Assembly: GCA_964449465.1 (NCBI GenBank)
Contig: CAYVBK010000015.1
Span: forward strand, 64,001 to 107,854
Source of the DNA: an uncultured Anaerolineae bacterium
GTDB taxonomy: Bacteria > Chloroflexota > Anaerolineae > JAFGEY01
Length of the DNA stretch: 43,854 nt
Reading direction: 5' to 3'
The position numbers were made by a program, and so were the translations under genes. Below, in pieces: positions 4,758 to 29,704 of the stretch (positions are counted from its first letter, which is position 1; each line of letters opens with the position of its first letter). The notes below the pieces were generated by a model. It did not search any database. It was not told the origin of the DNA and saw only the letters and a program-made list of their open reading frames with translations.

Positions 4758-4892
4758 CCTATGAGGCCGCTGAAAAAATCTATTTTTACCACAAAGGACA
4801 CTGAGAAAAGTTTTGCAATACTTGAGTTTTTAGGAATGCTTTGTGTCCTTTGTGTCTTGGTGGTGAGGGAGTTTTTCAGCACGCTCCTATGC
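4758..4892 (+). repeat. MITE-like palindromic dispersed repeat, copy A
   Basis: Termini read cctatgaggccgctgaaaaa ... tttttcagcacgctcctatg. Internal arms are ccacaaaggacac / gtgtcctttgtg. It is ~90% identical to copies at 17212-17349 (reverse orientation) and 23297-23436. The ORF 4761..5042 overlaps it and is rejected. Confidence 0.8.
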
Positions 4893-17211: not shown

Positions 17212-17349
17212 CTAGGAGCGTGCTGAAAAACCCGCTCACCACCAAGACACAAAGAGCACAAAGCATTTTTAGCGACTCAAAAGTATCGTAAACCTTTGTG
17301 TTCTCGGTGTCCTTTGTGGTAAAAATAGACTTTTTCAGCGGTCTCCTAG
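17212..17349 (-). repeat. MITE-like palindromic dispersed repeat, copy B (reverse orientation)
   Basis: ctaggagcgtgctgaaaaa...tttttcagcggtctcctag. About 90% identical to the reverse complement of copy C. Sits in the divergent promoter region between the thioesterase and aspartate aminotransferase genes. Confidence 0.8.
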
Positions 17350-17513
17350 TGTATGTCGAACCGGTTGTGCTGTCAAGTTGGGTTGCCGGTTTGCTCAAAC
17401 CATGATAAACTGAACATGCTCTCATCGGCGCGGGCATCCTGCTCGCCGCACCGATGGTGGTGGGCGACGCGCTGGAGGCAGATATCCCAACCCTTATTCA
17501 ATCGGAGGAAAAA

Positions 17514-18725
17514 ATGCTCAAGCTCTCTCAAGGTGTCCAACGCATCGCCGAATCGGCCACCATGGCCATTGATTCGCGCGCCAAAGCCATGAAGCAAGCC
17601 GGCGAGAACGTGATTGCCCTGGCCGCCGGCGAACCCGACTTTGACACGCCGGCGCACATTGTGCGGGCGGCCAACGAGGCCCTGGCTGCCGGTTTTACCC
17701 GCTACACCCCCGCATCGGGCATTGCCGAGTTGCGCGCCGCCTGGGCCGACAAGGTGGGCCGTGAGCGTGGCATCTCTTTCAAGCCCAATCAGTTGATGGT
17801 CACGGCGGGCGGCAAGCAGGCCCTCTTTAATGTGGTCTATGCGCTGGTAGACGCCGGCGACGAGGTAATCATCCCGGCCCCATATTGGGTCAGCTATACC
17901 GAGCAGGTCAAGGCGGTAGGAGCCACGCCGGTGATCGTATCCACCTCGGCTCAAGAGAATTTCAAGATGAGTGCGGCGGCCCTGCGCCAGACCATCACCC
18001 CACGCACCCGTCTACTCATCCTCAACTCGCCCTCCAACCCCACCGGCGCGGTCTACAACCGCGCCGAATTGACCGCCCTGGCCGGGGTGTTGGTCGAAAA
18101 GCAGGTGCCCGTGCTGTCGGATGAGGTGTATGACTGTTTGATCTATGGAACAGAGGTGGAGCAGCGGCCGCCGTTTGTCAGTATTGCTTCGTTGGGCGAC
18201 GAGATACTCAAATTGACGGTGGTGGTGGGCGCAGCCTCCAAAGCCTATGCCATGACCGGCTGGCGCATCGGGTTTGCCGCCGGCCCCGCCGACCTGATCG
18301 CTGCTTGCGGGCGGCTGCAAAGCCAGACCACCAGCGGCCCCAACTCGATAGCCCAAAAGGCGGCTCTGGCTGCCATCACCGGCGATCAAGGCACGGTAGA
18401 GGTGATGCGCCAGGAGTTTGATCGGCGGCGGTGGTACATGGTAGAGCGGCTGAACGCTATGCCCCATATCACCTGCCCCGTCCCCACCGGCGCGTTTTAT
18501 GCCTTTCCCAAAATTTCGGCCTATTACGGCCAGCGATACGATCAAGAGCCGGTCAATGGCTCGATGGATTTTTGCCGCTTGCTGCTAGAGCATGAAAAAC
18601 TGGCCCTGGTGCCCGGCGTCGAATTTGGCAACGACGAACACGTCCGCCTGTCCTACGCCGCCAGCATGGCCCAAATCCAGGAGGCCCTCAACCGTCTGGA
18701 GCGATTCCTGGCGCGGCTGGATTGA
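17514..18725 (+). CDS. Aspartate/aromatic aminotransferase (PLP fold type I, AAT class)
   Basis: Start ATG 17514 with GGAGGA 6 nt upstream. Motifs NVIALAAGEPDFDTP and SKAYAMTGWRIG (Schiff-base Lys region). Confidence 0.85.
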   Translation: MLKLSQGVQRIAESATMAIDSRAKAMKQAGENVIALAAGEPDFDTPAHIVRAANEALAAGFTRYTPASGIAELRAAWADKVGRERGISFKPNQLMVTAGGKQALFNVVYALVDAGDEVIIPAPYWVSYTEQVKAVGATPVIVSTSAQENFKMSAAALRQTITPRTRLLILNSPSNPTGAVYNRAELTALAGVLVEKQVPVLSDEVYDCLIYGTEVEQRPPFVSIASLGDEILKLTVVVGAASKAYAMTGWRIGFAAGPADLIAACGRLQSQTTSGPNSIAQKAALAAITGDQGTVEVMRQEFDRRRWYMVERLNAMPHITCPVPTGAFYAFPKISAYYGQRYDQEPVNGSMDFCRLLLEHEKLALVPGVEFGNDEHVRLSYAASMAQIQEALNRLERFLARLD

Positions 18726-18770
18726 CCAGTCCCGGATATTGTAACACAACCCTCTGCATTGCACCGGATA

Positions 18771-18792
18771 GAGACGCAACATATTGCGTCTC
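18771..18792 (+). terminator. Perfect 9-bp stem hairpin GAGACGCAA-cata-TTGCGTCTC downstream of aminotransferase gene (weak U-tract)
   Basis: Seen directly in sequence. There is no strong T-run, so termination function is uncertain. Confidence 0.3.
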
Positions 18793-18915
18793 TACTCCTG
18801 CTGAGGAGTTGCCGCACGAGGGCGTGCCAAACTCCTCGATGGACATTTTCATGTTGGGTGGTGTGCGAGAATCGTGTATGATGACTACTGGGACGATTTT
18901 CAAAGGAGAATGAAC

Positions 18916-20862
18916 ATGCCCTCACATCCTTATCGCAACGGCTATGCGCACATGGTGCTGGACGACTATGTTGCCAGATTGCGCGACATTTACGCCCGCC
19001 GACGGGCACGGCTGGCAGCGGTTCAGACGCCGGCGCAGGCTGAGGCCTATCAATGCGAGGCGCGGGCGGCCATCCGGCAGGCTTTTACGCCCTGGAGCGG
19101 ATTGCCATCGCGCACGCCGCTCCATCCTCACATCAACGGCGTGATACAAAGAGATGATTTTTGCATCGAAAGGCTCACCTTTGAAAGCCGCCCCGGTTGC
19201 CTGGTCACGGCCAACCTGTACCTGCCGTGCGGTCTGGATGCTCCGGCGCCCTGCGTGTTGGCCCCTTGCGGCCATGCCGCCGAGGGCAAAGCCTACGAGT
19301 TGTATCAGGCTTTTTGTCAACGACTGGCTATGGCCGGATTTGTGGTGTTGATCTATGACCCGTTCAGCCAGGGCGAGCGCGAGCAGTATCACGGCCTGGC
19401 CTGCCGTCCGCAGGTAGGTTGGGGCACCCAGGCTCACAATATGATGGGCAAGCAACTCGATCTCTTGGGCGATTCGTTCGCCTTTTGGCGGACCTGGGAC
19501 GGTATTCGCGCCCTCGATTATCTGCTTTCGCGCCCCGAAATAGACCCCACCCGCGTCGGCCTCACCGGCAATTCGGGCGGCGGCACCCTCACCACCTGGC
19601 TGTGGGCGTTGGACGACCGGTTTACGATGGCCGCGCCCAACTGCTTTATCACCTCGTTTCTGAGCAACCTGGAGAACGAACTGCCCGCCGACGCCGAACA
19701 GTGCCCGCCGGGCGTCATTGCCGCCGGCCTGGACATGGCCGATTTTATGATCGCCCAATCTCCCAAACCGGCCATTTTGCTGGGCGAGCGCTATGACTTT
19801 TTTGACCGGCGCGGCCTGTTCCAGGCCTATCAAGATATTCGCTCTTTTTACGATGCGCTGGGTGCCGGCGACCGGGTCGAACTGTGGATCGGCGACCGCG
19901 ATCACGGCTATCATGAACCCAGCCAGCAGGCCATGGTTGAGTTTTTCTGCCGCCATGCACGTATGCCGATGGTGTGGCGCGATGCGGCCGTTCCGCTGCC
20001 GGCCGCCGACCTGTGGGCCACGCCGACCGGTCAGGTGATGGAACTAGGCGCCACGCCGGCCTATGAATTGATCGCCGCGCAGGCATGCGACATTGCCGCA
20101 ACCCGTCCCGCGCCAGACGATGAAACCTTGCGCTCCAGGCTGGCCGATCTGCTCAACCTGCCTGCCCGCTCTGCGCCACCCCATTACCGCATCCCCCGTC
20201 CGCTGCGCCAGGGCGATCCGGCATGGGCGCGCTTTGCCGTCGAGACCGAAGGCCCGGTGCGCGCCATTTTGTTCAAGCTGCTACGGCCATCCGATTCTCC
20301 TTTTACCCTGGATGTTGAGCTGGAAGCGCGCCTCTATGTGCCGCACATTTCGGCGCAGGCCGACCTGGCCGAGAACGAATGGGCCAAATCGCTGACGCAA
20401 GACCTGCCCTTGTATGCCCTGGATGTGCGCGGCCTCGGCGAATCACTGCCCGAAGAAGAACGTGGCGGTTTTTTGCAGCCCTATGGCATGGATTACATGT
20501 TTCATGCCTATGGATTGATGCTCAATCAGAGCTATCTGGGGCGACGCGTCTATGACCTGCTGCGGGTAATAGATTTGCTGATCGGCGAGGGGGCGCAGTG
20601 CATTGACCTCTATGGGCGCGGGCAGGGAGCGATCCTGGCCGCGCTGGCCGCGCTGTTCCACCCTCAGGTCGAATCGGTGACGCTTCAAGATGCGCCGCGG
20701 TCATTTTTCGAGTGGACGCAGACGCCCTATGTGGCCTGGCCGGCGGCCAACTGTGGGCGTGGCATCTTGCACGTAGCTGATCTACCCGATATGCTGCGCA
20801 TTTTGGGCCGCCGGGCGACGGTTCTTGGTCACTGGGATGCGACCATGTCTCCTCTGCACTGA
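18916..20862 (+). CDS. Alpha/beta-hydrolase (acetyl-xylan-esterase-like / Abhydrolase_7-type), 648 aa
   Basis: Nucleophile motif GLTGNSGGG. Start ATG 18916 with GGAGA 7 nt upstream. The antisense ORF 18922..19956 is rejected. Confidence 0.55.
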   Translation: MPSHPYRNGYAHMVLDDYVARLRDIYARRRARLAAVQTPAQAEAYQCEARAAIRQAFTPWSGLPSRTPLHPHINGVIQRDDFCIERLTFESRPGCLVTANLYLPCGLDAPAPCVLAPCGHAAEGKAYELYQAFCQRLAMAGFVVLIYDPFSQGEREQYHGLACRPQVGWGTQAHNMMGKQLDLLGDSFAFWRTWDGIRALDYLLSRPEIDPTRVGLTGNSGGGTLTTWLWALDDRFTMAAPNCFITSFLSNLENELPADAEQCPPGVIAAGLDMADFMIAQSPKPAILLGERYDFFDRRGLFQAYQDIRSFYDALGAGDRVELWIGDRDHGYHEPSQQAMVEFFCRHARMPMVWRDAAVPLPAADLWATPTGQVMELGATPAYELIAAQACDIAATRPAPDDETLRSRLADLLNLPARSAPPHYRIPRPLRQGDPAWARFAVETEGPVRAILFKLLRPSDSPFTLDVELEARLYVPHISAQADLAENEWAKSLTQDLPLYALDVRGLGESLPEEERGGFLQPYGMDYMFHAYGLMLNQSYLGRRVYDLLRVIDLLIGEGAQCIDLYGRGQGAILAALAALFHPQVESVTLQDAPRSFFEWTQTPYVAWPAANCGRGILHVADLPDMLRILGRRATVLGHWDATMSPLH

Positions 20863-20930
20863 AACGAGGAACCGCCTGGCCTGATTCGGCGTCTTGGTAT
20901 TGATGTTCTGGATCGAACAGGAGGTTGACC

Positions 20931-21782
20931 ATGAAATTGAACCGACACGAATTTATGCGACGTTTGGGCGTGACGTTGGCTGGCTGGTTGGCTGCGCGCA
21001 CCACCGCCGCGTGTCAGGTATTTCCACCTCGCGTATTGTGCTACGATCAGGCCCCGCCAGATACGCCCACCCCGGCAGTGACATGCTATACAGTTATGCC
21101 TTCGCCTACCCCATCCCTTTCCTCCGACGCCGGCGATTACCTCACCCGCCAGGCACAGATTTTCCAGGCCACCCTGGAAGCCGGCGGATTGCCGGCCGAG
21201 GCCACCCGACAGGCACAGGCGGCCCTGGCCCGCGAGCGGCTGCGGCTCTGTTGGCTGGCCGGACTGGATGCGCTGGCCAAGCAGGCGGAAGACCTGGATG
21301 TCGGTGAGCAGGCACAAAAGCAGTTGCTGGCCGATCACCGCGCTGCGCTGAACGATCTGGTGGCGCTGAACGAATTGAGCGCAGAGGCCGCCGATCAGGC
21401 ACAGATCGCCTTTGAAGGAGCAGCCTATCACGTCTGGCGCAGCAATGCCCCCATCACCTGCTATGAACCGATGCTGGTTGATTTCAGGCCGGTCAGCAGC
21501 GGCGATCTGGTATCACGCGCCAAAATCCTGTCCATGTCCAGCGACCTGAACCCGAACACGCTGGCGGTCATCCAGGCGTCTATGGAGCGCGATGTGGCGT
21601 TTCTCAACATGTCGCCCGACGAGGTGAATGTGCTGTATCAACGCTTTACCCAGTCGCGCAAGCAAGGGCAGCCGCCTCCCGATTTTGCCCATGTCGAGCT
21701 AGAGGTGCCGCCAGAAGCGGCCGAGGCGGCGCAGTTCCTGATCGAGGTGCTGGCGCGAGACCGTCTGCGAAACCGCCCATGA
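20931..21782 (+). CDS. Tat-signal exported protein with three C-Y-(D/T/E) motifs in a Pro/Thr-rich N-region and a helical C-domain; candidate rSAM substrate
   Basis: Twin-arginine signal EFMRRLGVTLAGWLAA with possible lipobox TAAC. Motifs are LCYDQAPP, TCYTVMPSP and TCYEPML. AGGAGG lies 7 nt upstream. The stop overlaps the rSAM start (ATGA). Confidence 0.6.
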   Translation: MKLNRHEFMRRLGVTLAGWLAARTTAACQVFPPRVLCYDQAPPDTPTPAVTCYTVMPSPTPSLSSDAGDYLTRQAQIFQATLEAGGLPAEATRQAQAALARERLRLCWLAGLDALAKQAEDLDVGEQAQKQLLADHRAALNDLVALNELSAEAADQAQIAFEGAAYHVWRSNAPITCYEPMLVDFRPVSSGDLVSRAKILSMSSDLNPNTLAVIQASMERDVAFLNMSPDEVNVLYQRFTQSRKQGQPPPDFAHVELEVPPEAAEAAQFLIEVLARDRLRNRP

Positions 21783-22855
21783 GCCAGACGCCGCCCCTCT
21801 ATTCGCTGATCTGGGAGGTGACGCAGCGCTGCAATCACCTGTGCCGACATTGCTACAATGTCTGGCAGCCTGACACCCCGACATGGCCATGTTCATACCC
21901 GCGCGGCGAGTTGGATACGGCGCAATCGCTGGCCTTGATTGACAAGGCGCTGGACGAGACGGGTTGCCCGCATGTCACCCTCACCGGCGGCGAGCCGCTT
22001 TTGCGCTCCGATCTGCTCCAGATTGTGGCCCACCTGCGTCGGCGCGGGGTGAGCCTCACTCTGATCAGCAACGGGCGGCTGTTGTCCGAGGAACTGGTTA
22101 TGGAATTGATCGAGGGCGGGGTGAGTATGTTCGAGCTGCCGCTGCTGAGCCGGCGGCACGAGATGCACGACCGGTTGTGTGGCGCAGAAAAAGCCGAGGG
22201 CATTGCCGGCGCATTTGATGCAGTGCTGGCGGCGGCCGCGCGCATCCGCTATCACGGCGGGGCATGGGTGGCCGTTTTTGTGGCTACCCGCCTCAACATT
22301 GCCGATCTGGATGAGACCATCCGCCTGGCATTTGCGTTTGGCGCCAGCGGCCTGATGCTCAATCGCCTGAACGTGGGCGGGCGCGGGCGGGCCTATGTGG
22401 ATGAACTGCTGCCCTCGGTGGAGCAGGTCAAGGCCGCGCTGGCAGTAGCCGAGGCGGCCCGAGTCGAGTTAAACTGGCCCATCTCTTGTTCTATCGCCAT
22501 CCAGCCCTGCCTGATAGACCTGGCCGTATACCCCCATTTGGGGTTTGGCTTTTGCGCCGCCGGCACCGCGCGAGCCTATTACACGCTGGACCCGTTGGGC
22601 AACGTGCGCCCTTGCAACCATACGCCCACCATTTTGGGCAATTTGTTTCGAGAATCCTGGGCCGACATTGTTTCGCCGGAGCGTCTGGCCCCTTTTATGC
22701 AGGCAATGCCTTCTTTTTGCAAGGCCTGCCGCCTGCGCGAGACGTGTCAGGGCGGATGCAAAGCCGCCGCCCAGGTCTATGCCGGTTCTTTGAGCGAGCC
22801 GGAGCCGTTTTTGTGTCGTCACCTGGATCAGGCACAGCCCGTTTTGTCCGACTGA
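21779..22855 (+). CDS. Radical SAM enzyme with C-terminal SPASM domain (peptide/protein-modifying maturase class)
   Basis: CNHLCRHCY is the Cx3Cx2C motif. SPASM cysteines CAAGT...RPCNHTP...CKACRLRETCQGGCK are present. Translationally coupled to the upstream gene. Confidence 0.85.
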   Translation: MSQTPPLYSLIWEVTQRCNHLCRHCYNVWQPDTPTWPCSYPRGELDTAQSLALIDKALDETGCPHVTLTGGEPLLRSDLLQIVAHLRRRGVSLTLISNGRLLSEELVMELIEGGVSMFELPLLSRRHEMHDRLCGAEKAEGIAGAFDAVLAAAARIRYHGGAWVAVFVATRLNIADLDETIRLAFAFGASGLMLNRLNVGGRGRAYVDELLPSVEQVKAALAVAEAARVELNWPISCSIAIQPCLIDLAVYPHLGFGFCAAGTARAYYTLDPLGNVRPCNHTPTILGNLFRESWADIVSPERLAPFMQAMPSFCKACRLRETCQGGCKAAAQVYAGSLSEPEPFLCRHLDQAQPVLSD

Positions 22856-22892
22856 ACCAGGTTTGAAGCCATTCAGTTTTCTGGGAGGTTTG

Positions 22893-23300
22893 ATGATGTT
22901 GAACAAATGGGTTTTGTGTCTCGGCCTGGTCATTGTACTGTTGGGCGTTTCGGCCTGCGGCTCGGCCAAAACGGCCGAGATCAAACTGGGCGCAGGCGAT
23001 GATGGGCGCGAGATCGAGCTCAAGCAGGGGCAGGTGATGGCGATCAGTCTGGATAGCAACCCCACTACCGGCTATAGTTGGGCGGCCGTAGACCTGGATG
23101 AGGCCATTCTCCAGTCGGAGGGCGAGGCCGAGTTCAAATCGGAGAGACAGCCGGGAGTGGTGGGCGCCGGCGGCGTCGAAACACTGCGCTTCAAGGCAGT
23201 GAGCACGGGCAAGGTCACGCTCAAGCTGGCCTACCGCCGCTCTTGGGAGCAAAACGTCGAGCCGATCCAGACCTGGAGCGTCTCGGTCATAGTGCGCTAG
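22893..23300 (+). CDS. Chagasin-family (MEROPS I42) cysteine-peptidase inhibitor, lipoprotein
   Basis: Signal plus lipobox LLGVSAC. Conserved chagasin loop motif NPTTGYSW. GGGAGG lies upstream. Confidence 0.8.
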   Translation: MMLNKWVLCLGLVIVLLGVSACGSAKTAEIKLGAGDDGREIELKQGQVMAISLDSNPTTGYSWAAVDLDEAILQSEGEAEFKSERQPGVVGAGGVETLRFKAVSTGKVTLKLAYRRSWEQNVEPIQTWSVSVIVR

Positions 23301-23485
23301 GAGACCGCTGAAAAAGTCTATTTTTACCACAAAGGACACCGAGAACACCAAGACTTACGATACTTTTGGGTCGCTAGAAATGCTTTGTGTCCTTTGTGTC
23401 TTGGTGGTGAGAGGTTTTTTCAGCACGCTCCTAGGGAGGCCGCTGAAAAAGTCGGTTTTCATCACAAAGAACACCCAAGAGGCAA
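23297..23485 (+). repeat. MITE-like palindromic dispersed repeat, copy C (full copy 23297-23436 plus adjacent half-copy 23437-23485)
   Basis: ctaggagaccgctgaaaaagtctatttttaccacaaaggacac...gtgtcctttgtgtcttggtggtgag...ttttttcagcacgctcctagg, followed by a second left arm gaggccgctgaaaaagtcggttttcatcacaaagaacac. Lies between convergent genes. The ORFs 23380..23757 and 23385..23714 are rejected. Confidence 0.8.
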
Positions 23486-26422
23486 TTATTGCACACACCG
23501 ACTTGCCATTCGAATCTGTTCCAGCACATGGCGCGCCTGCTCGGCGCGCTGCCTGGCCCCGATTTGTTCCAATGTTGACAATGCTGCGGCCGCGTCTTGG
23601 TGCGCGGCCGCCAGCTCGCCCCGCGCCAGGGCAACTTTTGCCAGCCCCAGCCGGGCAATTGCCGCGCCCCAGCGATCATCCGCCTCAAGGCAAAGCGCGG
23701 CGGCAGTGGTATAGGCAACCTTGGCAACCTCCCATTCGCCCAACTCGCAGGCAATAGCGCCAAGATTATTATGGCTTAGTCCCTGCGCACGCTGGTCTCC
23801 GATGGTGCGGCGAAGCTCCAATGCGCGCATGTAATGATCCTGTGCCGTCAGCAGCGTACCCTCGTGCTGAGCCACAATGCCCAAGATGTTATAGGCATCC
23901 GCTTCCCCGCGCCGGTCACCGAGCTCTTGGCACAGCGCCAGACTTTGTTCCAAATAGCCCCTGGCCGCAGCATAGTCCCCTTGTTGCCACGCTACATTGG
24001 CCAACCCTTGCAGCGCATCTGCCAGCACCGGCATGTCGCCGGCGCGCGCGGCGGCGGTGTGCGCCCGCTCGTAGAGATCCCGTGCTTCAGGCAACCGTTC
24101 CAGGCGGCGTAGCGCATAGCCCCACTGCCGCAAGCCCGCCGCAGATAAAACATCATCACCAACCGCCAGCGACAGCGACACGGCACACCCGGCAGCCGCC
24201 GCCGCGACAGCGTAATCGCTGATCGCTTCAGCCAAGTGCGCCTGGCGCAATGCGGTTTCAATTTGATAGCGCGGCATCGCCAATGCTGGCGTCGTTTCTA
24301 CCAGGGCGGCCAGCTCCTGGAGCGCAGCGCGCTGCTCTTCGCGGCGGCCGGCCATATCGCATACAGATTCCAGCCCACAGAGCAACTTGTAACGCAGTTC
24401 CGGTGCTGGCGCCAATGCCAGCCCACGTCGGTAATACTCACCAGCTTGCTCTTGCGCATAAGCCTGCCGTGCCTGATCGCCCGCCTGAAGCAGATAGTGG
24501 GCGGCCGGCGCGCGTTGTTGCGCCCGGTCAAAGTGATGCGCCAGCAACGCGACCTGTGCGGGCTGTAGCGTCTCCAATGCGTGGGCGAGCCGGGCGTGGA
24601 GCAGGCGGCGCAGCGGCACAGGGACGGCCTGGTAGAGCGCGGCGCGGATTTTGTCGTGTGCTATATCCCACCCATCGGCGACAGGCCGCGCCAGCTGGCG
24701 CGTCTGCCAGTCGGCCAAAGCCGTCTCCACATCCTCTATCTCACATTCACCGGCGACGGTCAGCAATTCGGCGTCGAAAGGCTGCCCGTGCGCCGCTGCC
24801 AGGCTGAGCAGATATTGCCCCTGCTCGTCGAGCCGGATAGTGCGCTGTAAAATGATGTCTTGCACGCGCGTCGGCAGCGACAGCGGTGCAATCAAATCCC
24901 CAACAATTTCCCAGTTTCCCCCCTCGCCGCGCACAAAGCCCTGTTCTCGCAGGGCAGCCAGCGCTTCCCCAATGATGAACGGATTGCCCTCGCTTTCGCG
25001 GAACAGGTAATCCCCTAGCGGCGTTGTCCTCTCTGTTTGAAGCAGCAGGCTCGTCAGTTTCGCCACATCAGCGGCGGTCAGTGGCGAGAGTTCCAACAGA
25101 TGCAGCAGCCCGTCGCGGTTGAGAGTCTGCCGCAGGCGAGTGAGTGGATGGTCGGGCAGCGCATCGTCGGACCGGTACGCGCCGACGAGCCAGCAAGGAG
25201 CTTTGTTCAGGTTGCGCGTCAGATAATGAATCAAATCCAGTGTGTCGGAGTCGGCCCAGTGCAAATCATCCAGAAAAATCACACACGGGGTACGCAATCT
25301 ACACAAATCGCGCAGCCAGGCGGCAATGGCAGCAAAGAGCGCGTGGCGTGCTTCCGGTTGAAATGGCCCGGTGAGCCATTGCGCCAACGGATTGTCAGGT
25401 ACAACGTGCAACGCTTCATAGAGAGCCTGATAGGGCAGAGTGCGGTTGAATCCATAGCAACGTCCCCGCAGCACCCGCGCACCCTGTCCGGCAATAAAAC
25501 GCAACGTTTCCTGAACAAGCCGCGTCTTGCCGATGCCGGCCTCGCCAGCGACAAGGGTGAGGCCACCGGCACTGCGCCGGGCAGCATCCCACTGCACCAG
25601 CAGCCAGGCGTGCGCCTCTGCGCGGCCCACCAGCGGCAGCAACGCCGGCGGCGGAGCCAAGTCGGCAGACTCTGTCAATTCAGCGTTGGCAACAATGCGA
25701 CGATACAGCGACTCGGTTTCCGGCGCGGGGGCAACGCCGAGTTCCGTTTCCAAAAGATGGCGACACACTTCATATTGCCGCAAAGCAGCGTCGCGCTCGC
25801 CTTGCAATGCAAGCAGCAGCATCAATTGGCGATGCGCGCTTTCGCGCCAGGGGTCAAGGTCCAGCGCGCGCCGGGCGCAAGCGACGGCGGCGGGCCATTC
25901 GCCGCGCTGTCGGTGATAGGCGATCAGCCCATCCCACGCGCTCAACGCCAGCGTGTGGGCCTGCTCCTGCTGAATGCGCTGCCATTCTTCAAACTCGGGG
26001 CAGCCGGGCAGCGAAAAGCCCGCCAGCAGCGGCCCGCGGTAGAGTTCCAGCGCGGCACTCAGCGCAGCGGGGGATTGCTGCGCAGTGCGATAAGCGGCGA
26101 TCAGAACGTGAAGGTCAATCCAGGCCGGGGTTGGCGGAGTCAGGGCGATGGTTTCCCGGTCGCTGGCGATGCAGGCGGGGAACAAGTCGCGCAGATTGGA
26201 AAGCACACGGCTGAGGTTGCCGCGCGCGCGGGCTTCGGGCTGCTCGCCCCAGAACAGCCCGGCCAGTTGTTCGCGGCGAAGCGAGCGCGCTTCCAGCAGC
26301 AGGTAGCAGAACAGAGCGCGCGCCTTGTCGGACTCAAAGGCGGTAACGGGCTGCCCGGCCCATTCCACCCGAAAACCGCCCAGCAACCAGACACGCAACT
26401 CGCTCATCTCATCATCCAGCAT
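23486..26422 (-). CDS. SARP/AfsR-like large transcriptional regulator (OmpR-type wHTH + BTAD + NB-ARC ATPase + TPR)
   Basis: N-terminus LRVWLLGGFRVEWAGQPV...ARALFCYLLLE is the SARP DNA-binding region plus BTAD. Walker A GEAGIGKTRL and Walker B VIFLDDLHWAD are present. C-terminal TPR-like repeats. The antisense ORF 25037..26458 is rejected. Confidence 0.8.
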   Translation of the reverse strand: MLDDEMSELRVWLLGGFRVEWAGQPVTAFESDKARALFCYLLLEARSLRREQLAGLFWGEQPEARARGNLSRVLSNLRDLFPACIASDRETIALTPPTPAWIDLHVLIAAYRTAQQSPAALSAALELYRGPLLAGFSLPGCPEFEEWQRIQQEQAHTLALSAWDGLIAYHRQRGEWPAAVACARRALDLDPWRESAHRQLMLLLALQGERDAALRQYEVCRHLLETELGVAPAPETESLYRRIVANAELTESADLAPPPALLPLVGRAEAHAWLLVQWDAARRSAGGLTLVAGEAGIGKTRLVQETLRFIAGQGARVLRGRCYGFNRTLPYQALYEALHVVPDNPLAQWLTGPFQPEARHALFAAIAAWLRDLCRLRTPCVIFLDDLHWADSDTLDLIHYLTRNLNKAPCWLVGAYRSDDALPDHPLTRLRQTLNRDGLLHLLELSPLTAADVAKLTSLLLQTERTTPLGDYLFRESEGNPFIIGEALAALREQGFVRGEGGNWEIVGDLIAPLSLPTRVQDIILQRTIRLDEQGQYLLSLAAAHGQPFDAELLTVAGECEIEDVETALADWQTRQLARPVADGWDIAHDKIRAALYQAVPVPLRRLLHARLAHALETLQPAQVALLAHHFDRAQQRAPAAHYLLQAGDQARQAYAQEQAGEYYRRGLALAPAPELRYKLLCGLESVCDMAGRREEQRAALQELAALVETTPALAMPRYQIETALRQAHLAEAISDYAVAAAAAGCAVSLSLAVGDDVLSAAGLRQWGYALRRLERLPEARDLYERAHTAAARAGDMPVLADALQGLANVAWQQGDYAAARGYLEQSLALCQELGDRRGEADAYNILGIVAQHEGTLLTAQDHYMRALELRRTIGDQRAQGLSHNNLGAIACELGEWEVAKVAYTTAAALCLEADDRWGAAIARLGLAKVALARGELAAAHQDAAAALSTLEQIGARQRAEQARHVLEQIRMASRCVQ

Positions 26423-26504: not shown

Positions 26505-26756
26505 ATGATGAATCTGGACACGTATATGCCTTCAACTTATCGCGCGTTCATTTTGCGGATGTGGACAGAGCAAGACACGTTTGATGCCATGTCGCCGCCA
26601 TTGTGGCGTTTTAGCCTGGAGAGCATCGGAACACAGGAGGAGCCATCATCAGAGCGGCGCGGTTTTGCCAGCGTAGAAGAACTGCTGGCGTATGTGCAGG
26701 AATTGGCCCTCGCCAATTCGGCTGGGGATAAATCTATTATTCAGGAGGTCAAATGA
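26505..26756 (+). CDS. Small hypothetical protein (83 aa), translationally coupled to downstream giant secreted protein
   Basis: GGGAGAGG RBS followed by an ATG ATG start. The stop TGA overlaps ATG 26753 of the next gene (ATGA). No Cys residues and no signal peptide. Confidence 0.5.
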   Translation: MMNLDTYMPSTYRAFILRMWTEQDTFDAMSPPLWRFSLESIGTQEEPSSERRGFASVEELLAYVQELALANSAGDKSIIQEVK

Positions 26757-29704
26757 TGAAAACTCGTCAGAAATGGATGTGTATGGTATTGATTGGCTTG
26801 TTTGTGTTGGGCCTGGCGTCGTCCGAGTTTGCGCCAATGCGCGCGCCCGTCGCGGCCGCGCCGCCTTGGGCTGCACCGCAAGCGGCGACAGGGACTCTTA
26901 CCGTGACCAGCCTGGCCGACTCGACGGCGAATGACGGCTATTGCACACTGCGCGAGGCGATCATCAATGCCAACAATAACGCGGCTACCTGGCCCGACTG
27001 CCCCGCCGGCAGCGGGCTAGACGTGATTGATTTGACCAGCTTGAGCGGGCAGATTACCTTGCTCGCCAACCTGCCGGAATTGACCGACCCCGCCGGCTTG
27101 TCCGTGCAAGGCCCCGGCGCAGCAACGCTGGCGATCAGTGGCAACGATGCATACCGCATGTTTCGGGTCTTTCAGGATAACCCGCCCATTGATGGGCCGC
27201 TTACAGTGCGCGATTTGACCTTGCGGAACGCCAAAGGGGATAATCCTGGCAGCGTGATTCGCACGCCCAGTGGGAGCGCCGTAGAGGTGTGGAACAGCGT
27301 CATCATCAGCAACACCCACAGCGCCATTTATATTGCGGGCGGCAGCTTGAAGGTGAGCCACACCACGTTTAGCGGCAACACAACCACCGGCGCCGGCGGC
27401 GCCATCCAGGCCGTCAACAACTTTCAGGCTGCGCAGCCGGCCCCCACTGTATGGGTAGATGCTTCCACCTTTATCCGCAACCAGGCGGGTGCCGGCCATG
27501 CGATTGATCAAAACAGCGGCAGCCTGATGCTTGACAACAGCCTGTTTCAGAAGAACGGTGTCACCACCAGCGACGGCTATGGCACGGTGAATTACAGTGG
27601 GAATATGGACATTGTCGTGACAAACTGCCAGTTTCAGGGTAATCAGACCCGGCAGGGCGGCGCGCTGCACGATGCCGGGGGCATGGGCGTAGTCTATATT
27701 GAAAACAGCCGGTTCATCAGCAACACGACGGGGTATACTGCCGGCGTCATTCGCAGCGGCGGCGGGCGCGCCCTCGACATCCGCCGCAGCCTGTTTGTGG
27801 AAAATATGACGACAGAAAAGGGCGGCGTAATTTACAGCTATGCGCCCATCACGGTTACCGCCAGTGCCTTTTATAGCAACACGGCCGGTTATATGGGCGG
27901 CGTGATTATGACGGAAAACGACGCCACCGGCCCGATTACGATCTTGAACAGTCTGTTCCAGAGCAATCACGCCGAGTGGGGCGGCGCGATCTGGTTTGGG
28001 CGTGGTCTATATGTGACAAATACCACCTTTTACACCAACACGGCAGGGTATGCCGGCGGCGCACTGGCCTCGTTTGAGGGCTGGGGCGAAATCAACAACA
28101 GCACCTTCGATCACAACGGGGCCGCCAACGGTGCCGCCTTGTATTTTAGTAACGGCTGGGCGCCACCGATCACGTTGCGCAATACCATCATTGCCAACCC
28201 GTTATGGGGCAACAATTGTCATACCTATACCGGCTCGTACACTGACGGCGGCAATAATCTGCAATACCCCGGCACCAGTTGCAATGCAGCGATCCCAGAA
28301 CTGAATCCGCTGTTAGACCCTGCCGGCCCGCAGGATAACGGCGGCCCCACCTGGACAATTGCGCTGCAAGCCGGCAGCCCGGCGATTGATCGGATCCCGA
28401 CCGGTGGCGTTTGCCCGGCGACCGATCAACGCGGCGCGCCTCGCCCGGTGGACGGCGATGGGGTCGGCGCGGCCGATTGCGACAGCGGCGCGTATGAATA
28501 CGGCAGCGTCGGCCCGGTCACGCTCAGCAAGACGGCGGTGGACGCAAACGGCACACCGCTCAAACCCGGCGACACCATCTCTTACACCGTGCGCGTCGAG
28601 AACACCTTCCCGGCCGCGGTGACCGGCGTGATCGTCACGGACACGATCCCGGCCTACACCACCTACATCCCAGGTTCCGCCGTTCCGCCGGCGACCAGGG
28701 TGGAGAACGTGTTGGTGTGGAGCGGTTTGAGTCTGACGGCCAAACAGGTGCAAACACTCACCCTGGCTGTGACGGTGAACGAGAACGCCGGCGGTCAGGT
28801 GATCAACAATGTGGCCTGTACAGTGCAGCCAGGGGTGTCACAGACCTGCACGCAGCCCGTCACCCCGGCCGGCCCGGATGGCGGCACCGTCACGCCGGTG
28901 TTGGCCTTGGGCAAGACGGCGTTGGACGTGAACGGCGCACCGCTGCTGCCCGGCGACACAATCCGCTATACCATCCAGGTGACAAACAGCCATGCCGTCA
29001 CCGTCACCGGCTTTACACTCCAAGATGCCATCCCCGCGTACACCACCTATGTGGCCAACTCGGACACGCCCGAAGCCGATGCGGACGCCGACCCGTTGGT
29101 CTGGAGCAATCAGACCATTCCGCCGGGCGTCAAGACATACACATTCGAGGTGACCATCAATGCCAACGCCGGTGGACAGAGCATTGCCAACATGGCTTGC
29201 CTGACTCAACAGGGGCTGACGCAGGCCTGTACCCAACCGGTGACACCGCCTGGCGCACCAGGGAGCACGGTTGTGCCAGTGTTGGCCTTGGGCAAGGCGG
29301 CGTTGGACGTAAACGGCACGCCGCTGCTGCCCGGCGACACAATCCGCTATACCATCCAGGTGACGAATCCGCACAGCGTTGACGTATCGGGTGTCGTCAT
29401 CAGCGATGTGATTCCGGCGTATACCACCTACGCGCCCAACTCGGACACGCCCGAAGCGGATGCAGATGCCGACCCGTTGGTCTGGAACAATCAGACCATT
29501 CCGCCGGGTGTCAAGACATACACATTTGAGATCACTGTGAATGTCGGTGCGGTAGGACAAACGATTCGGAATCGAGCTGTGATGCGGCAGCCAGGTCTGA
29601 CAGAGCCAGGCATGACGCCTTGGGTTGAACCATCGGGCGGGGGGCTGGTAAAACAGCTGGTGTATCTGCCGCTGGCGATCAAAGACCTGTCTATGCAACC
29701 ATAA
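26753..29704 (+). CDS. Large secreted protein: signal peptide, CSLREA-like N-terminal motif, right-handed parallel beta-helix repeats, 3 tandem DUF11 (conserved repeat) domains
   Basis: Signal MMKTRQKWMCMVLIGLFVLGLASS. GYCTLREAIINAN matches the CSLREA-domain motif. Gly/Asn/Thr-rich PbH1-like repeats follow. Three ~127-aa repeats carry LKPGDTI(S/R)YT. Confidence 0.8.
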   Translation: MMKTRQKWMCMVLIGLFVLGLASSEFAPMRAPVAAAPPWAAPQAATGTLTVTSLADSTANDGYCTLREAIINANNNAATWPDCPAGSGLDVIDLTSLSGQITLLANLPELTDPAGLSVQGPGAATLAISGNDAYRMFRVFQDNPPIDGPLTVRDLTLRNAKGDNPGSVIRTPSGSAVEVWNSVIISNTHSAIYIAGGSLKVSHTTFSGNTTTGAGGAIQAVNNFQAAQPAPTVWVDASTFIRNQAGAGHAIDQNSGSLMLDNSLFQKNGVTTSDGYGTVNYSGNMDIVVTNCQFQGNQTRQGGALHDAGGMGVVYIENSRFISNTTGYTAGVIRSGGGRALDIRRSLFVENMTTEKGGVIYSYAPITVTASAFYSNTAGYMGGVIMTENDATGPITILNSLFQSNHAEWGGAIWFGRGLYVTNTTFYTNTAGYAGGALASFEGWGEINNSTFDHNGAANGAALYFSNGWAPPITLRNTIIANPLWGNNCHTYTGSYTDGGNNLQYPGTSCNAAIPELNPLLDPAGPQDNGGPTWTIALQAGSPAIDRIPTGGVCPATDQRGAPRPVDGDGVGAADCDSGAYEYGSVGPVTLSKTAVDANGTPLKPGDTISYTVRVENTFPAAVTGVIVTDTIPAYTTYIPGSAVPPATRVENVLVWSGLSLTAKQVQTLTLAVTVNENAGGQVINNVACTVQPGVSQTCTQPVTPAGPDGGTVTPVLALGKTALDVNGAPLLPGDTIRYTIQVTNSHAVTVTGFTLQDAIPAYTTYVANSDTPEADADADPLVWSNQTIPPGVKTYTFEVTINANAGGQSIANMACLTQQGLTQACTQPVTPPGAPGSTVVPVLALGKAALDVNGTPLLPGDTIRYTIQVTNPHSVDVSGVVISDVIPAYTTYAPNSDTPEADADADPLVWNNQTIPPGVKTYTFEITVNVGAVGQTIRNRAVMRQPGLTEPGMTPWVEPSGGGLVKQLVYLPLAIKDLSMQP
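28515..29650 (+). repeat. Intragenic tandem DNA repeat, 3 units of ~381 bp (DUF11 modules); units 2 and 3 ~90% identical
   Basis: ccggtgttggccttgggcaagacggcgttggacgtgaacggc at 28895 matches ccagtgttggccttgggcaaggcggcgttggacgtaaacggc at 29276, a period of 381 bp. Confidence 0.8.

Follow-up and report, generated by a model that had tools for sequence, protein, structure and literature searches.

In an uncultured bacterium of the Anaerolineae, a protein carrying Cys-Tyr motifs (the CY protein) and a radical S-adenosylmethionine enzyme with a SPASM domain (rSAM hereafter) are encoded by an obligate, translationally coupled gene pair, which very probably constitutes a functional unit. The pair lies in the window, that is, the whole 43,854-nt stretch of contig CAYVBK010000015.1 that was analyzed and in which all coordinates given here are positions; the window is ordinary chromosomal DNA. 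It is also probable, with appreciably less assurance, that the CY protein is the substrate of rSAM and is modified at a Thr-Cys-Tyr (T-C-Y) sequon. Three genes occupy the region on the same (+) strand: the gene for the CY protein (20931-21782, 283 aa), the presumed substrate and a founding-type member of an unannotated family, with AGGAGG located 6 nt ahead of its ATG; the radical SAM/SPASM gene (21779-22855, 358 aa), encoding the presumed maturase; and a gene for a chagasin-family (I42) lipoprotein (22893-23300, Pfam PF09394). At the junction of the first two, CCC ATG AGC, the TGA stop of the CY gene overlaps the ATG of the rSAM gene by 4 nt (ATGA). The features from which the initial annotation had started, namely the 283-aa protein with three Cys-Tyr motifs, the ATGA overlap, the full radical SAM/SPASM enzyme and the chagasin gene 37 nt further on, are all borne out by the open reading frames (ORFs), the junction sequence and the Pfam matches.

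Co-occurrence of the two genes across genomes had been set beforehand as a test of their linkage, and it holds at every testable locus when followed from either side. Starting from the CY gene, a scan in which each GTDB species was represented by one genome yielded 34 loci, nearly all of them from Chloroflexota, with one CY gene, or up to three tandem paralogues, ahead of a single rSAM gene; the rSAM gene comes directly after the CY gene or genes at all 33 loci with downstream DNA (E 1e-97 to 1e-165). From the enzyme side, a scan of metagenomes produced 352 stretches encoding a relative, and at the best 80 of these 352, which were taken as loci, one to five CY genes lie upstream of rSAM in 70 of the 70 cases with at least 150 nt of upstream sequence, with the 4-nt overlap recurring at 53 of 68 CY-rSAM junctions. 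Divergent lipobox-type members of the CY family (~30% identity) keep the same layout. Such co-occurrence alone does not identify a substrate, and the two genes might be operon partners that lack any enzyme-substrate relation, with the CY protein serving, for example, as an extracytoplasmic sensor or anchor while rSAM acts elsewhere. This seems quite unlikely, given that adjacency with a 4-nt overlap persists across rSAM orthologues of only 49-72% identity, that no third conserved gene is present to provide an alternative substrate, and that there are few other rationales for coupling a cytoplasmic Fe-S enzyme to an exported protein.

The neighborhood contributes little beyond the pair itself. 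All-against-all clustering of the flanking ORFs at 114 loci revealed no other conserved neighbors, only shadow ORFs and sporadic housekeeping genes, among them a GNAT-like gene at 19 of 60 loci, transketolase, FdhD, an ABC-F ATPase and YgjP, and a cluster of neighbors shared by 9 loci consisted merely of response-regulator domains. Neither a small ORF nor a PqqD-like gene, a protease or a transporter is conserved beside the pair at these loci. There is no sulfatase gene in the window, nor is one a conserved neighbor at the 114 loci; a sulfatase-family gene found just upstream of the pair in L115 was considered and dismissed, since no other locus has it and the PqqE-like profile of the rSAM is unchanged at L115. 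An ORF in which the CY protein and rSAM appear fused (L030:7962-9698, on a 3.2-Mb long-read contig of a metagenome-assembled genome, or MAG) was likewise set aside: the C-terminal ends of both parts are out of frame, and indel errors are the probable cause.

The CY protein belongs to a sizeable family that comes almost only from MAGs of the Anaerolineae type. At least 545 homologues were found in a set of 5.8 billion proteins, all of them unnamed and lacking a Pfam domain, from MAGs and metagenomes of Chloroflexi or Anaerolineae, and a profile search of 1.84 billion representatives recovered 532 clusters (50% identity) at E <= 1e-3 and 302 at E <= 1e-10. The window protein matches no Pfam model, no NCBIfam model (June 2026) and no sequence in the PDB, and full-text searches of the literature turned up no description of the CY/rSAM family. 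An AlphaFold2 (AF2) model of the protein, with a mean predicted local distance difference test score (pLDDT) of 84.9, has an all-alpha core, with residues 25-65 disordered; this confident, all-helical model supports the earlier proposal that the target is a full-length folded protein. Across the family the partner protein is 200-280 aa long with a folded domain of ~200 aa, and its members have in common a twin-arginine translocation (Tat) motif, a Cys at fixed distance from it, the all-helical domain and the T-C-Y sequon, with a variable Pro/Thr-rich linker. His136, Asp221 and Trp108 are invariant in the alignments in addition to Cys-Tyr, and conservation is highest in the stretch Y-H-V-W-R-S-N-A-P-I-T-C-Y-E-P. 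Several variants of the general arrangement were encountered. Two CY domains are present per polypeptide in representatives P0241, P0256, P0262 and P0293 (404-476 aa), which are either tandem duplications or merged gene calls. In a divergent branch (L115:561-5829 and L116) three tandem CY paralogues with classical lipoboxes (SGSLPGC) stand before rSAM. The pair-bearing loci L014, L031 and L033 and the representative P0197 derive from MAGs labelled Halioglobus, Rickettsiales or Phycisphaerales, reflecting either mis-binning or rare occurrence outside the Chloroflexota, and the rSAM copies of L031 and L033 are the most divergent, at 49% identity.

No feature of the partner protein is under stronger constraint than the Cys-Tyr dipeptide, which upholds the weight given to this motif in the initial annotation. 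Of the five Cys residues in the window protein (28, 37, 52, 107 and 177), three (37, 52 and 177) are followed by Tyr, in the motifs LCYDQAPP, TCYTVMPSP and TCYEPML; three or more such dipeptides arose with a frequency of 6e-5 among 200,000 shuffles of the sequence. Two of the sites lie in the linker (V-L-C37-Y38-D-Q, 21033-21050, and V-T-C52-Y53-T-V, 21078-21095), and the third, N172-A-P-I-T-C177-Y178-E-P180 (21444-21470), lies in the loop between helices 151-172 and 185-202 and is the presumed site of modification. This core loop has lower pLDDT within the confident model. C-Y is found in 227 of 229 unique family members, the two exceptions being fragments; C177 and Y178 are invariant in two alignments (A1, A4) and reach at least 90% conservation in a third (A2), and the dipeptide is kept in divergent relatives (E ~1e-30) in spite of changes in the flanking residues. 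The shared sequon is [IV]-T-C-Y-x-P, and only the core (third) site is invariant, while the N-terminal linker holds from zero to three sites per protein with the same short sequon, [VI]-T-C-Y-x-P. Within the linkers of the family 131 of 166 Cys residues (79%) precede Tyr, a ~32-fold excess over the Tyr background (Tyr makes up 2.45% of linker residues), and conversely 131 of 171 linker Tyr residues directly follow Cys. At the position after Tyr, 78% of core sites have Glu, and linker sites have A, E, T, I or D. Since this position varies, the rule that an acidic residue follows Cys-Tyr, which had been read from the window protein, does not hold in general, and the constant unit is Thr-Cys-Tyr.

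The enzyme of the pair is a complete radical SAM/SPASM protein, and by sequence comparison it falls in no curated family, with PqqE its nearest relative. In Pfam it matches Radical_SAM (PF04055) with 68.7 bits against a cut-off of 29.5 and SPASM (PF13186) with 24.5 against 21.5, along with Fer4_12. The ligands of the radical SAM [4Fe-4S] cluster, C18-x3-C22-x2-C25 (21830-21853), are invariant in 28 and in 64 orthologues (alignments A3 and A5). The SPASM region (22487-22816), recognized by regular expression and alignment, contains C237, C244, C259, C279, C314, C317, C323, C327 and C346. With the SPASM criterion C-x9-15-G-x4-C ... C-x2-C-x5-C-x3-C ... C in the C-terminal extension, the seven-Cys motif is complete (C259-x14-G-x4-C279, C314-x2-C317-x5-C323-x3-C327 and C346), and this match, together with the above-threshold PF13186 score, upholds the assignment of a full SPASM domain of the TIGR04085 type. 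Eight Cys residues are conserved in the C-terminal half, of which C244, C259, C279, C314, C317, C323 and C327 are invariant in the orthologue alignments. In the window enzyme and in the three relatives closest to it, Tyr replaces the last SPASM Cys of the family, C334 (59 of 64 orthologues); the window protein alone has C346 (residues 334-346, 22778-22816), perhaps an auxiliary cluster II ligand that has been relocated.

Classification of rSAM against profile hidden Markov models, which had been recommended at the outset, places it outside every curated equivalog. The best NCBIfam match is PqqE (TIGR02109), at 109 bits against a cut-off of 381, followed by GeoRSP (98 bits), AhbD (97), NirJ2 (92), NirJ (87.5) and MftC (86), with all curated equivalogs far below their cut-offs; anSME and QhpD are not among the 25 best NCBIfam matches. 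By these scores, and with no sulfatase as a conserved neighbor, the enzyme has no other established substrate, in keeping with the expectation. Among solved structures PqqE (6c8v, E = 1.9e-20) is the nearest, whether sequence or profile is compared, and when the rSAM family profile is run against the PDB, anSME is matched in the SPASM segment only (39.6 bits). The AF2 model (pLDDT 92.8) retrieves PqqE as its top Foldseek match and is about equally similar to PqqE, SkfB, CteB, SuiB, ChlB and anSME (template modeling, or TM, scores of 0.64-0.71, with anSME at ~0.68-0.70), all of them enzymes that mature peptides or proteins. Orthologues are annotated merely as 'radical SAM protein'. No recognition element of the kind found with peptides that are made on the ribosome and modified after translation (RiPPs; RiPP recognition element, RRE) and no PqqD domain is present in rSAM, in which the radical SAM core starts at about residue 10 and the PqqE match at residue 5. 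Genes for PqqA, B, C and D are absent from the window and from the conserved neighbors. Two other associations were pursued and abandoned: PADLOC reported generic similarity of rSAM to the viperin core and nothing for the CY protein, leaving no link to defense systems, and the SPASM systems of the eLife 2020 paper on conflict systems use FxSxx peptides and are unrelated.

Export of the CY protein is indicated by a signal that is canonical for Tat in sequence at the level of the family, although degenerate in the window copy. The consensus is [TS]-R-R-[ED]-F-[IML]-[KR] followed by a hydrophobic stretch, which answers to the general Tat pattern [ST]-R-R-x-F-L-K, with 107 of 127 full-length representatives and 221 proteins overall carrying it; such a canonical motif is consistent with a protein that is modified in the cytoplasm and then exported in folded form. 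A Cys lies 19 residues after the first Arg in 191 of 214 members, preceded by a lipobox (L-S-G-C type) in 58 members and by x-x-R in 132. The conservation of this Cys, and its alternation with classical lipoboxes, suggests that the mature CY protein is anchored in the membrane. In the window protein the signal (aa 1-28, 20931-21014) comprises a Tat-type n-region, a hydrophobic stretch and Cys28 after T-A-A; a 4-residue insertion (TTAA) precedes the conserved Cys, and the sequence to be set against the lipobox pattern [LVI]-[ASTVI]-[GAS]-C is T-A-A-C28.

The most probable interpretation of these features is that the CY protein and rSAM form a self-contained two-gene cassette for protein maturation. 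The CY protein would be made in the cytoplasm with its Tat-type signal, and rSAM, translated from the overlapping downstream gene and having neither an RRE nor a PqqD domain, would bind it directly. The 5'-deoxyadenosyl radical generated by rSAM would then modify the linear sequon [IV]-T-C-Y-x-P, both where it is exposed in a loop of the helical domain and in the Pro/Thr-linker repeats where these are present, after which the modified and folded protein would be exported by Tat, probably to remain at the outer face of the membrane, with either a lipidated Cys or a signal anchor left uncleaved to hold it there. The order of events, the site of modification and the relation of enzyme to substrate are inferred from sequence, and it is the combination of strict adjacency, translational coupling, tandem CY genes, a signal for folded export and a constrained sequon that argues for an enzyme-substrate pair. 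The CY protein peptide that covers the mapping target, beside the linker peptides, is SNAPITCYEPMLVDFR.

As to the chemistry, opinions must be held more loosely. That rSAM installs a new modification on the adjacent Thr-Cys-Tyr of a folded, Tat-exported (lipo)protein, whether an intra-sequon thioether ring or a Cys/Tyr redox cofactor, is a tentative reading, and that its product is a crosslink, as the initial annotation had proposed, is slightly more doubtful still. A first guess would be a thioether that joins the sulfur of the Cys to a carbon in the Thr or Tyr beside it, in a ring of the sactionine or ranthionine type between adjacent residues, an idea made attractive by the conservation of both neighbors. 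A second guess, by analogy with anSME, would be oxidation of the Cys to formylglycine.

Several observations weigh against the proposed cassette or against parts of it, and some of them bear on other explanations. All of the related genomes that carry CY genes are MAGs. In the window protein itself R5-H6 occupies the family R-R position, where 220 of 221 motif-bearing relatives have R-R; a second R-R, R10-R11, which had been noted initially as the twin-arginine signal, lies four residues beyond that position. The earlier identification therefore survives for the family, with its canonical Tat consensus, and not for the particular arginines, and the signal of the window protein (residues 5-11, 20943-20963) could be a compensated or impaired variant. 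The Pfam TAT_signal model matches 15 of 120 CY members, and these weakly.

A further point of this kind is that rSAM scores against tetrapyrrole SPASM enzymes almost as well as against PqqE (AhbD 97 and NirJ2 92 bits, to which NirJ may be added at 87.5, vs 109), and a small-molecule substrate is thus conceivable. rSAM might make or tailor a small-molecule cofactor, such as a tetrapyrrole in the manner of AhbD and NirJ, that is loaded into the CY protein in the cytoplasm. Tat export is typical of cofactor-containing proteins, and the Tat signal of the CY family would be in keeping with this; a binding site could be made up of the invariant His136, Asp221, Trp108 and Cys-Tyr, and the helical-bundle fold is compatible with cofactor binding. 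In greater detail, the Cys would be a covalent attachment point and the Tyr a ligand, and the holo-protein would leave by Tat. Both the general proposal and this more specific form of it are judged improbable: T-C-Y-x-P repeats in variable copy number in a disordered Pro/Thr linker resemble a linear sequon and not a pocket, no other biosynthetic gene is conserved nearby, and several CY genes in tandem for one translationally coupled rSAM gene are typical of substrate-maturase pairs.

The last difficulty concerns the clusters of the enzyme, in that the eight conserved Cys residues could fully ligate both auxiliary clusters and leave no open iron for a substrate thiolate. If this is so, oxidation as in anSME would fit better than thioether formation as in CteB, and rSAM would be a maturase that forms no crosslink, with conversion of the sequon Cys to C-alpha-formylglycine yielding an exported protein with a reactive aldehyde beside Tyr. 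There are parallels with anSME in the absence of an RRE from rSAM, the inferred full-length exported target and the eight conserved Cys of the SPASM half, and anSME is among the structural matches noted above; only the Cys would be strictly needed, which would explain why the residue after Tyr varies. The same proposal leaves the strict conservation of Tyr and Thr unexplained, however, and has to contend with the absence of anSME from the 25 best NCBIfam matches, with the restriction of the PDB anSME match to the SPASM part, with a sequon that differs from C-x-P/A-x-R and with a partner that lacks the sulfatase fold, so that it too appears improbable.

The chagasin gene was initially taken as a third component, and in this respect the comparison of loci is decisive. 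Its most likely start, the ATG at 22893, lies 37 nt past the rSAM stop and behind GGGAGG, the product matches Pfam Inhibitor_I42 (PF09394) at 86.4 bits against a cut-off of 27.2 (E = 1.7e-24), and the signal ends in the lipobox-like LGVSAC. Proximity on the same strand, with its own ribosome-binding site and no terminator-like site detected by a simple scan of the gap between the two genes, would agree with a model in which the CY protein, rSAM and the chagasin act together. No chagasin homologue is found at any of the 114 related loci, including the 76 with more than 1 kb of downstream DNA, and the genes downstream of rSAM elsewhere are unrelated housekeeping genes (FdhD, ABC-F ATPase), which renders a three-component model highly improbable; the chagasin gene is a local coincidence and lies outside the system.

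The surroundings of the pair in the window include several further features. A 662-aa protein encoded at 18874-20862, 68 nt upstream of the CY gene, has weak alpha/beta-hydrolase matches (AXE1, Peptidase_S9, DLH), and its gene is not conserved beside the pair at other loci. Downstream and on the opposite strand is a gene for a 978-aa regulator of BTAD-AAA_16-TPR architecture (23486-26422, -), followed by the gene (26753-29704, +) for a secreted protein of 983 aa that has PMP and DUF11 repeats and contains an internal tandem duplication of 381 nt (28832-29566, ~81% identical). A dispersed intergenic repeat of ~138 nt occurs at 4759-4889, 17212-17349 (inverted) and 23297-23434, with a partial copy at 23435-23480. 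It is a long imperfect hairpin that as RNA folds with -67.7 kcal/mol (z = -3.7) and is probably a REP/MITE-like element (repetitive extragenic palindrome or miniature inverted-repeat transposable element); Rfam detects no RNA family in the window and offers no match for the repeat. Two inverted copies, 93% complementary, flank a block of five genes from an aminotransferase gene to the chagasin gene. The possibility that they mark the boundary of a mobile element (17350-23296) was rejected in light of the third copy at 4759-4889, 12 kb away, which identifies the sequence as a dispersed repeat.

To our knowledge, few radical SAM/SPASM enzymes act on whole proteins, and anSME and QhpD are the main examples. 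The CY/rSAM pair would add a third, unrelated case, with a minimal two-gene layout, the portable sequon [IV]-T-C-Y-x-P, a new helical fold and a Tat signal, and hundreds of lineages of Chloroflexota of the Anaerolineae type have conserved it, bacteria that are abundant in sediments and digesters and poorly understood. Should the chemistry prove new, the catalogue of protein-derived cofactors and crosslinks would be widened and a sequon for protein engineering gained, and should it be formylglycine formation or a standard thioether, a function would still be assigned to two sizeable families of 'hypothetical' proteins. A new modification at Thr-Cys-Tyr would, in addition, define the CY proteins as a novel family of extracytoplasmic proteins with wide occurrence in Anaerolineae.

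Parallels with characterized systems are instructive, and PqqE, the nearest relative by sequence, is a suitable place to begin. PqqE requires PqqD and joins Glu to Tyr in a peptide of 20-30 aa. The two enzymes share a layout without an N-terminal extension, and the PqqE substrate also contains Tyr, whereas rSAM remains far below the 381-bit cut-off and the linker sequons of the CY protein can do without a Glu after Tyr. NCBIfam describes, under TIGR04133/TIGR04134 ('rSAM with lipoprotein'), another uncharacterized orphan pair in which the partner of a radical SAM/SPASM enzyme is a secreted protein of the lipoprotein type, but the window enzyme scores 58.7 bits against the 425-bit cut-off of TIGR04133, and the CY protein has no counterpart among the NCBIfam models. 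The maturases of sactipeptides and ranthipeptides (AlbA, SkfB, CteB, PapB, KgrC) resemble rSAM in having SPASM or twitch domains and in forming thioethers at Cys, with SkfB and CteB close by structure, and a thioether ring between adjacent residues (thiomorpholine) is formed by a radical SAM enzyme, KgrC, in enteropeptins (PMC12395415). These enzymes differ in acting on short leader peptides through an RRE, from clusters with proteases and transporters; the CY/rSAM pair, unlike RiPP systems, has no short precursor, RRE, protease or transporter.

The closer analogies are with the two enzymes that act on whole proteins. QhpD modifies Cys residues of the linked QhpC in the cytoplasm before export, by direct recognition that requires no RRE (PMC7876137; PMC11951088), and QhpC, a protein of ~80-110 aa in which coil predominates and which bears a leader of 28 residues, leaves through the ABC transporter QhpF once QhpE has cleaved the leader (PMC7876137). 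QhpC had been cited initially as a precedent for Tat export of a modified protein, a role that its export by QhpF denies it (PMC7876137). Common to both systems are the SPASM enzyme, a dedicated and linked protein partner and, as judged here from the genes, modification before export. The CY partner differs in being a helical protein of 200-280 aa with a Tat-type signal and in having no neighbors akin to QhpA, B, E, F or G; moreover, QhpD links Cys to Asp or Glu, and the linker sequons of the CY family show no conservation of an acidic residue. With anSME (AtsB, ChuR) rSAM shares the absence of an RRE, a short linear Cys sequon, here a presumed target, on a full-length, signal-bearing protein addressed before export, the number of conserved Cys residues in the SPASM domain and a similar fold (TM ~0.7), while the CY sequon [IV]-T-C-Y-x-P is distinct from C/S-x-P/A-x-R and the CY partner is a novel helical protein and not a sulfatase. 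Because family scores, type of partner, sequon and operon context all fail to agree, the pair is a member of neither the anSME nor the QhpD family, and by analogy it would work in the way that maturation by these enzymes does. What is new is the presumed substrate family, the sequon and the link to Tat, and what is of a known kind is a radical SAM/SPASM maturase with a dedicated protein substrate.

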